Below, piece after piece: positions 3,694 through 52,240 of a DNA stretch of 64,000 nucleotides. Below the pieces are notes generated by a model. The model searched no databases and was not told where the DNA came from. It saw nothing but the letters and a program-made list of their open reading frames with translations. The stretch is taken from the NCBI GenBank assembly GCA_951406725.2, contig OX597815.1:131316001-131380000 (forward strand), read 5' to 3'. Source of the stretch: Octopus vulgaris (lineage: Eukaryota). Every line of letters begins with the position of its first letter. The stretch's first letter is position 1. A program made the translations under genes and the position numbers.

Positions 3694-3947
3694 CGGAGAC
3701 GTACTTGCATAGCAAGTGATTTGATCTGGGATCGTGTGCTGGAACGAAAATAATTGCAGCGTGGAAGGTGTTTGTAAGCCATTTAAGAAACACACAAAAA
3801 TCAGTGCTACAGTACGGATTTTTGTCAGTGAACAGGTTGTGGTCTTATAGCGACGAAAATATTTTGACAAATTAAACTTAAATGTTGAAGTGAATCGAAC
3901 TCTTTTGTGTGTTTCATAAATGGCTTACGAACACCTTCCACGCTGCA

Positions 3948-4008
<61 letters not shown>

Positions 4009-40196: not shown

Positions 40197-40237
40197 CATA
40201 CATATATATATATACATATCTAAAATTGTAGCGTAGT

Positions 40238-40550
40238 AAGGTGTTTATAGGCCATTTAAGAAACACAAAACCCGTTAAATTCACTTCAACGTTTAAATTT
40301 AGTTTCTCCAAATATTTTCGTCGCGATCTGTTCACCGACAAGATACCGTGGTGCAGTGGAATTTTATCAGTGAACAGGTCGCGGTCTCAAAGCGACGAAA
40401 ATATTTTGAAAATTAAATTTAGATATTGAAGTGAATCTAACGGTTTTTGTGTTTCTTAAATGGCTTATTAACACCTTCCACGCTGCTATTGTTTTCGTTC
40501 CAGCACACGCTCTCAGGTCAGTTCACTTGCTATGCAAGTACATCTCCACA
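40238..40550. mobile_element. Inverted pair of PLE-like termini (same family as 3690-3950) with G3:C8 hammerheads
   Basis: Arms 40238-40342 and 40360-40479; + motif 40363-40412 TTTATCA GTGAACA G GTCGC-loop-GCGAC GAA AATATT T TGAAAA. Confidence 0.75.
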
Positions 40551-52203: not shown

Positions 52204-52240
52204 TGTTTCTGAAGAGGAGCTTTGCTCGAAACGTAAAACA
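52204..52240 (+). ncRNA. Intact minimal type I hammerhead ribozyme
   Basis: TGTTT CTGAAGA G GAGC TTT GCTC GAA ACGT A AAACA; all core nucleotides and stems present; inside insert ~52121-52356 between (TATG)n. Confidence 0.9.

Follow-up and report, generated by a model that had tools for sequence, protein, structure and literature searches.

In the hammerhead ribozyme, the base pair between positions 3 and 8 of the catalytic core is made when the ribozyme adopts its active conformation, and it holds the general acid in position. An engineered C3G/G8C rescue mutant made by Martick and Scott in 2006 reportedly has partial activity. Minimal hammerheads with an extra nucleotide are carried by metazoan Penelope-like elements, and a variant having a U3:A8 pair has also been published (Cervera and de la Pena 2014, PMC4209133; PMC3088659; PMC6765202). 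Natural U3:A8 hammerheads were described by Perreault 2011 (PMC3088659) and occur in the Cercyon elements of Schistosoma (PMC4209133). The 56 rows of Fig. S3 in PMC4209133 comprise two U3:A8 hammerheads and one with U3-G8, the rest being C3:G8; none is G3:C8. The double substitution C3G/G8C brings back part of the cleavage of a Penelope-like hammerhead (PMC11167929), partial rescue by the same change appears in PMC8495972, and an exhaustive mutagenesis that included all double mutants of that region of the core yielded a single strong rescue, the G:C swap (PMC9901934). In the literature covered, mostly as listings of reports, the swap was met only as a laboratory mutant, and neither a natural G3:C8 hammerhead nor an octopus hammerhead was found; this core may already figure among the Penelope-associated variants described by Lunse, Weinberg and Breaker (PMC5785218) or in the motif lists that accompany PMC3088659 and PMC8557442. 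In viral contigs, none of the 97 distinct matches to a G3:C8 pattern folds fully, as compared with 104 of 133 canonical matches (one stem II pattern without the extra nucleotide; 51 and 3 of 64 parts scanned).

Penelope-type hammerheads cut poorly in vitro and are dispensable in one reconstituted system. The lizard ribozyme cut only with protein, ribozyme mutants left insertion in vitro unaffected, and two internal reverse transcriptase (RT) start sites define the tail of the lizard element (PMC11167929).

The window analyzed here is a 64,000-nucleotide stretch of Octopus vulgaris DNA. It contains two insertions that carry a hammerhead-like motif with the core GTGAACA; the extra G, stem II, GAA, and N17 are given as read in the window copy at 3821-3871.

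3695..3798, minus strand: inverted, 5'-truncated arm of the first insertion, with an optional tail of ~58 nt, as read from the window sequence
3809..3953, plus strand: sense arm of the same short Penelope-like insertion, with the element RNA's 5' end, the hammerhead, and 11 initial ORF codons (ATG at 3920); 85% identical to the copy at 40348-40492, the ORF start being read in locus L136
3821..3871, plus strand: type I minimal hammerhead fold, with cleavage predicted after U3864
3821-3827 with 3865-3871, plus strand: stem I, 7 Watson-Crick pairs
3828..3834, plus strand: swapped core GTGAACA (G3-U4-G5-A6-A7-C8-A9), with G3 at 3828 and C8 at 3833; the swap is family-wide
3835, plus strand: extra G between A9 and G10.1
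3836-3840 with 3850-3854, plus strand: stem II, 5 bp
3855-3857, plus strand: G12-A13-A14 (GAA)
3858-3863, plus strand: palindromic stem III, AATATT, 2 bp in the monomer and a 6-bp palindrome in the dimer
3864, plus strand: N17, a U
40216..40347, minus strand: inverted arm of the second insertion, core at 40335-40329, with the loop and a single arm of stem II deleted
40348..40547, plus strand: sense arm of the second insertion, core at 40370-40376, with a perfect stem II, a mismatched stem I, and the tail present

Both insertions are short Penelope-like copies that include an inverted arm and lie in (TA)n runs, and such runs bound the first one (3695-3953) on both sides. The initial annotation of this DNA had proposed a hammerhead fold with a G3:C8 core at 3821-3871, and a re-reading of the window together with a pattern scan bears this out. 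The three helices around the core are present, as in a canonical hammerhead, and G12-A13-A14, A15.1:U16.1, H17, and G10.1:C11.1 are all in place. Also present are the two traits of minimal Penelope-type hammerheads, the extra nucleotide 9/10.1 (G3835), which the earlier fold had overlooked, and a palindromic helix III. The literal core C3-U4-G5-A6-N7-G8-A9 is departed from at G3 and C8, and the motif is therefore filed as a hammerhead variant rather than as a canonical member, one that derives from a hammerhead and probably functions in the same way.

Not all of the parts previously described as intact are so. Stem I, GAA, and AATATT are, but stem II has two C-to-T changes, which produce two extra wobbles, and its canonical register is predicted to pair with a probability of only 0.11, as compared with 1.0 in a young full-length element (L136). 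The window copy itself is a decaying one. The recurrence of GTGAACA at 40370-40376 (plus strand) and in the inverted arm at 40335-40329 (minus strand) was correctly noted; these two copies share the core, but neither keeps the entire fold. The folding z-scores of the motif are ordinary (-1.3 and -0.9). Searches with the Rfam hammerhead models come up empty both for the whole window (E<=1) and for 3780-3920 (E<=10), as anticipated by the suggestion that standard searches miss the swapped family; the test is a weak one, since two canonical-type minimal hammerheads in the window are missed at E<=1 as well. These two, each with the extra nucleotide and both belonging to other repeat families, lie on the plus strand at 52209 (canonical C3:G8 core) and 1340 (decayed C3:A8 core).

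The swap is a trait of the family, as had been claimed, and not the decay of a single copy. An exact-match pattern search of the genome (2.8 Gb), with positions 3, 7, and 8 left free and the reversed pattern as a control, provided the copy count that the initial annotation had proposed: 6,138 matches as against 0 for the control, 5,671 of them being G3:C8. The swap is also found in both pseudo-LTRs of L136, and contigs of three other organisms (X5, X7, and X11; 39, 31, and 36 contigs, respectively) have the same swapped core in a loose-end table, which makes the trait common to several species. A C3 consensus in one presumed-RNA run was set aside as too thin (only 6 contigs, agreement 0.81). 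Among the genomic matches, C3 occurs in 19, all of which are C3:C8, and G3:A8 or G3:U8 in 142. G8 occurs in 175; among the 100 of these listed, 97 are G3:G8, and a single contig bears 33 of the G3:G8 copies listed. No C3:G8 was found in the 6,138 matches, 0.5 being expected from independent decay. Independent variation of positions 3 and 8 had been named beforehand as evidence against the swap being functional; the positions do vary singly, as is expected of decay after insertion, and the observation is not diagnostic. As this copy-level variation is mostly such decay, it provides no test of 3:8 covariation. A cluster of G3:G8 copies on G000 contig C16 (1.3-10.6 Mb; L146, L147, L160, and L161) has one common stem II loop and could be a local source element or a segmental duplication.

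Covariation can be examined through a sister family, whose protein is 55% identical to that of the swapped family and which has a homologous motif at the same place, in its 3' region. The sister pattern has 3,762 matches in the genome, and among the 100 listed, position 3 is C in 97 and G in none, while position 8 is G in all 100. The Watson-Crick pair between positions 3 and 8 is therefore kept in both families, as G:C in the swapped one and C:G in the sister. We aligned four rows per family (8 rows in total), 98.9% of the cells of which pair. Four of 11 pairs change on both sides between the families, one each in stems I, II, and III in addition to 3:8; with only two lineages these amount to four events, and the shuffle controls ignore relatedness. 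By comparison with the canonical sister form in L163, positions 3 and 8 are the only ones to differ among 13 conserved core positions, for which the chance is 0.4-1.3% (a post hoc sum). These comparisons agree with the compensatory behavior initially ascribed to the swap, and G3:C8 is likely to be a compensatory change relative to the sister C3:G8. Position 17 is C in 9 of the 12 sister copies read and U in the swapped family, which would remove a G3-C17 trap; a G3-C8 variant has been found to be less active with C17 than with G17 (PMC3884650). The sister ORFs are 99-100% identical to one another (L142:4671, minus-strand count, and L162-L167), making this the youngest expansion, and one is 99% identical to an Octopus vulgaris protein.

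The host of the swapped motif was located by a search with the DNA common to L028 and L034 upstream of the motif. This gave 30 loci, of which 29 have the motif pattern (28 G3:C8 and 1 C3:C8), and in many of them one ORF ends ~1 kb upstream of the motif. The best copies of this ORF are 97-99% identical. A full unit of motif, ORF, and motif is found in L136, where the motifs at 2242 and 6503 mark both pseudo-LTRs; the ORF there starts 56 nt past the predicted cut and is interrupted by one stop and one frameshift. Within the element, the motif has the 3' UTR on one side and the start of the ORF on the other. A different ORF, also Penelope-like and located upstream of the motif in L028, was rejected as the parent, the element being present in only 6 of 44 loci (L062-L105; 4 genomic places); that ORF family has a 3' end of its own, which lies in (TA)n, and its neighbors are nested insertions.

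The host ORF has a match to GIY-YIG (PF01541, E=1.8e-5) in Pfam and none to an RT in the same search. Its best database homologue is annotated as an RT-domain protein. By eye, we take several of its motifs to be those of an RT. The endonuclease is preceded by a CX3CxxC linker, and the element also has a C-terminal CCHH, partial tandem and inverted copies, an optional tail, and (TA)n targets. A CX2-5CxxC linker before the endonuclease defines the Neptune/Nematis type (PMC8557442), and by the feature list of that report the host, a young Penelope-like element, is assigned to this type. In a 15-row ORF tree, G3:C8 appears in both main branches. The summed depth of contigs on the 200-nt pseudo-LTR end in L136:2185-3200 is hundreds to thousands of times that on the ORF start in 4 of 4 runs; this is not a copy number, but it fits short copies being in vast excess. 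Another young Penelope-like family (L092:4026-4900; L063-L105), with open frames of 784 residues, ends in a degenerate hammerhead-like motif having U3:A8 and a C replacing A13; in a family 72% identical to it, a hammerhead scan gave none.

The ends of short copies were read from 170 distinct arms at the 3' side and 167 at the 5' side, a sample biased to motif-holding arms, 51 of which were chosen for their upstream DNA. The 3' ends fall into two groups, ~30 and ~90 nt past the ORF start (72 and 86 of the 170 arms), which match the internal RT start sites described in PMC11167929. The 5' ends concentrate at four positions located 19-22 nt before G3 (36 of 167 arms); a second peak of 28 arms is an artefact of the alignment where three bases vary. 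The base before the 5' end position is C or T in the genomic element, and a non-templated G stands there in 89 of the 100 purine cases listed (655 matches in total). No shared upstream exon precedes this G in any of 20 fetched copies, and a spliced upstream exon is accordingly rejected as its source; in five of the 20 the G directly follows (TA)n. We infer from this pattern that the 5' G is cap-derived and that transcription starts at that site, whose equivalent in the window lies immediately ahead of 3809.

The putative start site resembles a 3' splice site as well, perhaps one used in a longer read-through RNA: a branch-point, a pyrimidine tract, and a YAG-like sequence end 20 nt upstream of G3, older copies having CAG and the youngest TAG. 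No splice joint was seen in the contigs, the stretch compared containing no candidate donor. In Drosophila virilis Penelope, the end of an intron abuts helix I (PMC4209133), and the element has an internal promoter (PMC2377424). Copies that start at the cut site account for 1 of 167 arms and, in a separate search, for about 7-10 of the 100 matches listed (597 in total), as judged by eye. The pile-up that would have signaled cleavage in vivo is thus not present, which indicates that genomic copies derive from uncut RNA. Their template RNA was probably capped, and such capped 5' ends together with the two 3' ends support the internal-initiation model of the lizard element in a second phylum.

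On balance, we favor the explanation that the hammerhead in which C3:G8 became fixed as G3:C8 is a slow, still-selected self-cleaving variant, whose activity is predicted to depend on dimer formation or on the protein of the element. Transcription would start 22 nt before G3 and yield a capped RNA; the element's RT would start inside the ORF, within its first 30-95 nt, and copy back to the cap, giving rise to thousands of copies of 150-200 nt in (TA)n, often with an inverted arm, including both window insertions. Cleavage is predicted 58 nt after the start of transcription and 56 nt before the ATG, ahead of both RT starts, and would decap the mRNA and sever the template. Slow cleavage would for this reason suit a successful master element, in which a slow ribozyme may be tolerated or favored while the geometry of the active site is still kept. 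Folding counts against activity: G3 is predicted to form a wobble with U17 (probability 0.66-0.8). A dimer containing two hammerheads can be drawn but is predicted to be 2-5 kcal/mol less stable than two monomers, by models that ignore tertiary contacts and help from protein.

Several signs of loose constraint in these families would instead fit a dead relic, in which a C3-to-G change killed the ribozyme, drift followed, C8 arose by chance, and the motif persists because it lies in the obligatorily copied 5' end. Copies with G8 outnumber those with G3:A8 and G3:U8 together, and G8 is in both arms at 7 loci as compared with 3 loci with mixed arms, so that templates with a broken pair were also copied. 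A marker of young copies is present in 2 of 19 G8 copies versus 17 of 28 C8 copies (p=0.0007; p=0.08 against 5 of 12 in a control of C3 point mutants), which places G8 mostly on older backgrounds. The youngest sister expansion has an uncompensated A9C (C in 91 and A in 8 of the 100 sister matches listed), a second natural core variant, here with C for the invariant A9, indicating that core constraint is loose in this lineage; and, as noted, copies come from uncut RNA. However, the remaining 11 positions of the core, like all three stems, have been kept across 45% protein divergence with three compensations in the stems, and the double change is the very one singled out by exhaustive mutagenesis (PMC9901934). 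The G8-linked ORFs L146 and L147 nest among C8-linked ORFs and are not basal in the 15-row tree, although the fork is unstarred; G3:G8 as a basal intermediate thus has no support in that tree, and background age suggests it weakly. We consider a relic unlikely on this evidence.

The fold and the 3:8 pair might also be kept for a non-catalytic job, such as protein binding or the translation, splicing, or stability of the leader. The fold occupies most of the leader from the presumed start to the ATG, and a role in splicing would suit the 3' splice-like sequence before G3 and the Drosophila virilis arrangement (PMC4209133), just as the dispensability of catalysis in vitro would suit any such job (PMC11167929). 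In the lizard system, however, the protein-binding region is the ORF start and not the ribozyme (PMC11167929). Moreover, the 3:8 pair belongs to the active conformation, where it positions the general acid, and its retention is best explained by catalysis; we regard a purely structural role as improbable. Chance resemblance or the decay of a single copy, to which the weak z-scores and the silence of Rfam might point, is already refuted by the 6,138 matches against none in the control, by the motif in both pseudo-LTRs, and by the canonical homologue in the sister family, and can hardly be entertained.

A bolder version of the slow-ribozyme explanation is possible, and we put it forward with some doubt. 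The octopus motif would be the first natural G3:C8 hammerhead, active, and would have crossed an inactive valley by two transversions and a C17-to-U change. It would act as a deliberately slow switch, decapping mRNA and cutting the template only upon an encounter of two RNAs or the binding of the element's protein, and successful octopus lineages would have been tuned down independently, by G3:C8 in one and A9C in the sister. If true, a tuned-down slow switch would account for the persistence in Penelope-like elements of hammerheads that are not required for transposition. The two-transversion core swap, along with covariation in three stems, constitutes evolutionary evidence of selection on active-site geometry, and if slow cleavage has been retained, the swap would show that selection keeps these ribozymes. 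The octopus families offer natural molecules for such tests, namely the G3:C8 and G3:G8 forms and the canonical and A9C forms of the sister, and descriptors fixed on CUGANGA or UUGANAA overlook whole high-copy families.

The octopus hammerheads resemble those of PMC4209133 in being type I with a short palindromic helix III, an extra nucleotide 9/10.1, and G10.1-C11.1. The elements are similar as well, with the hammerhead in the pseudo-LTR, thousands of truncated copies, and inverted pairs 100-700 bp apart (PMC4209133). The extra nucleotide is G in the octopus family, whereas the consensus in PMC4209133 is H, with G in 1 of 56; and helix I has 7 bp, as compared with 4-5 bp in the hammerheads of that report. 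Like the Neptune/Nematis elements (PMC8557442), the octopus element has an RT followed by a CX3CxxC linker and GIY-YIG with CCHH, pseudo-LTRs, inverted 5'-truncated arms, an optional tail, and (TA)n targets; its tail is ~58 nt, longer than the 30-40 nt usual for that type (PMC8557442). Both the U3:A8 variants (PMC3088659; PMC4209133) and the octopus G3:C8 are instances of natural covariation of the 3:8 pair. However, U3:A8 is reached by two transitions via a U-G wobble and keeps a pyrimidine at position 3 and a purine at position 8, whereas G3:C8 takes two transversions via a mismatch. Unlike U3:A8, it alters the base carrying the general acid. Engineered C3G/G8C mutants have the same substitution; the octopus version is natural and fixed in a multi-species family, where it is accompanied by U17 and the extra G.
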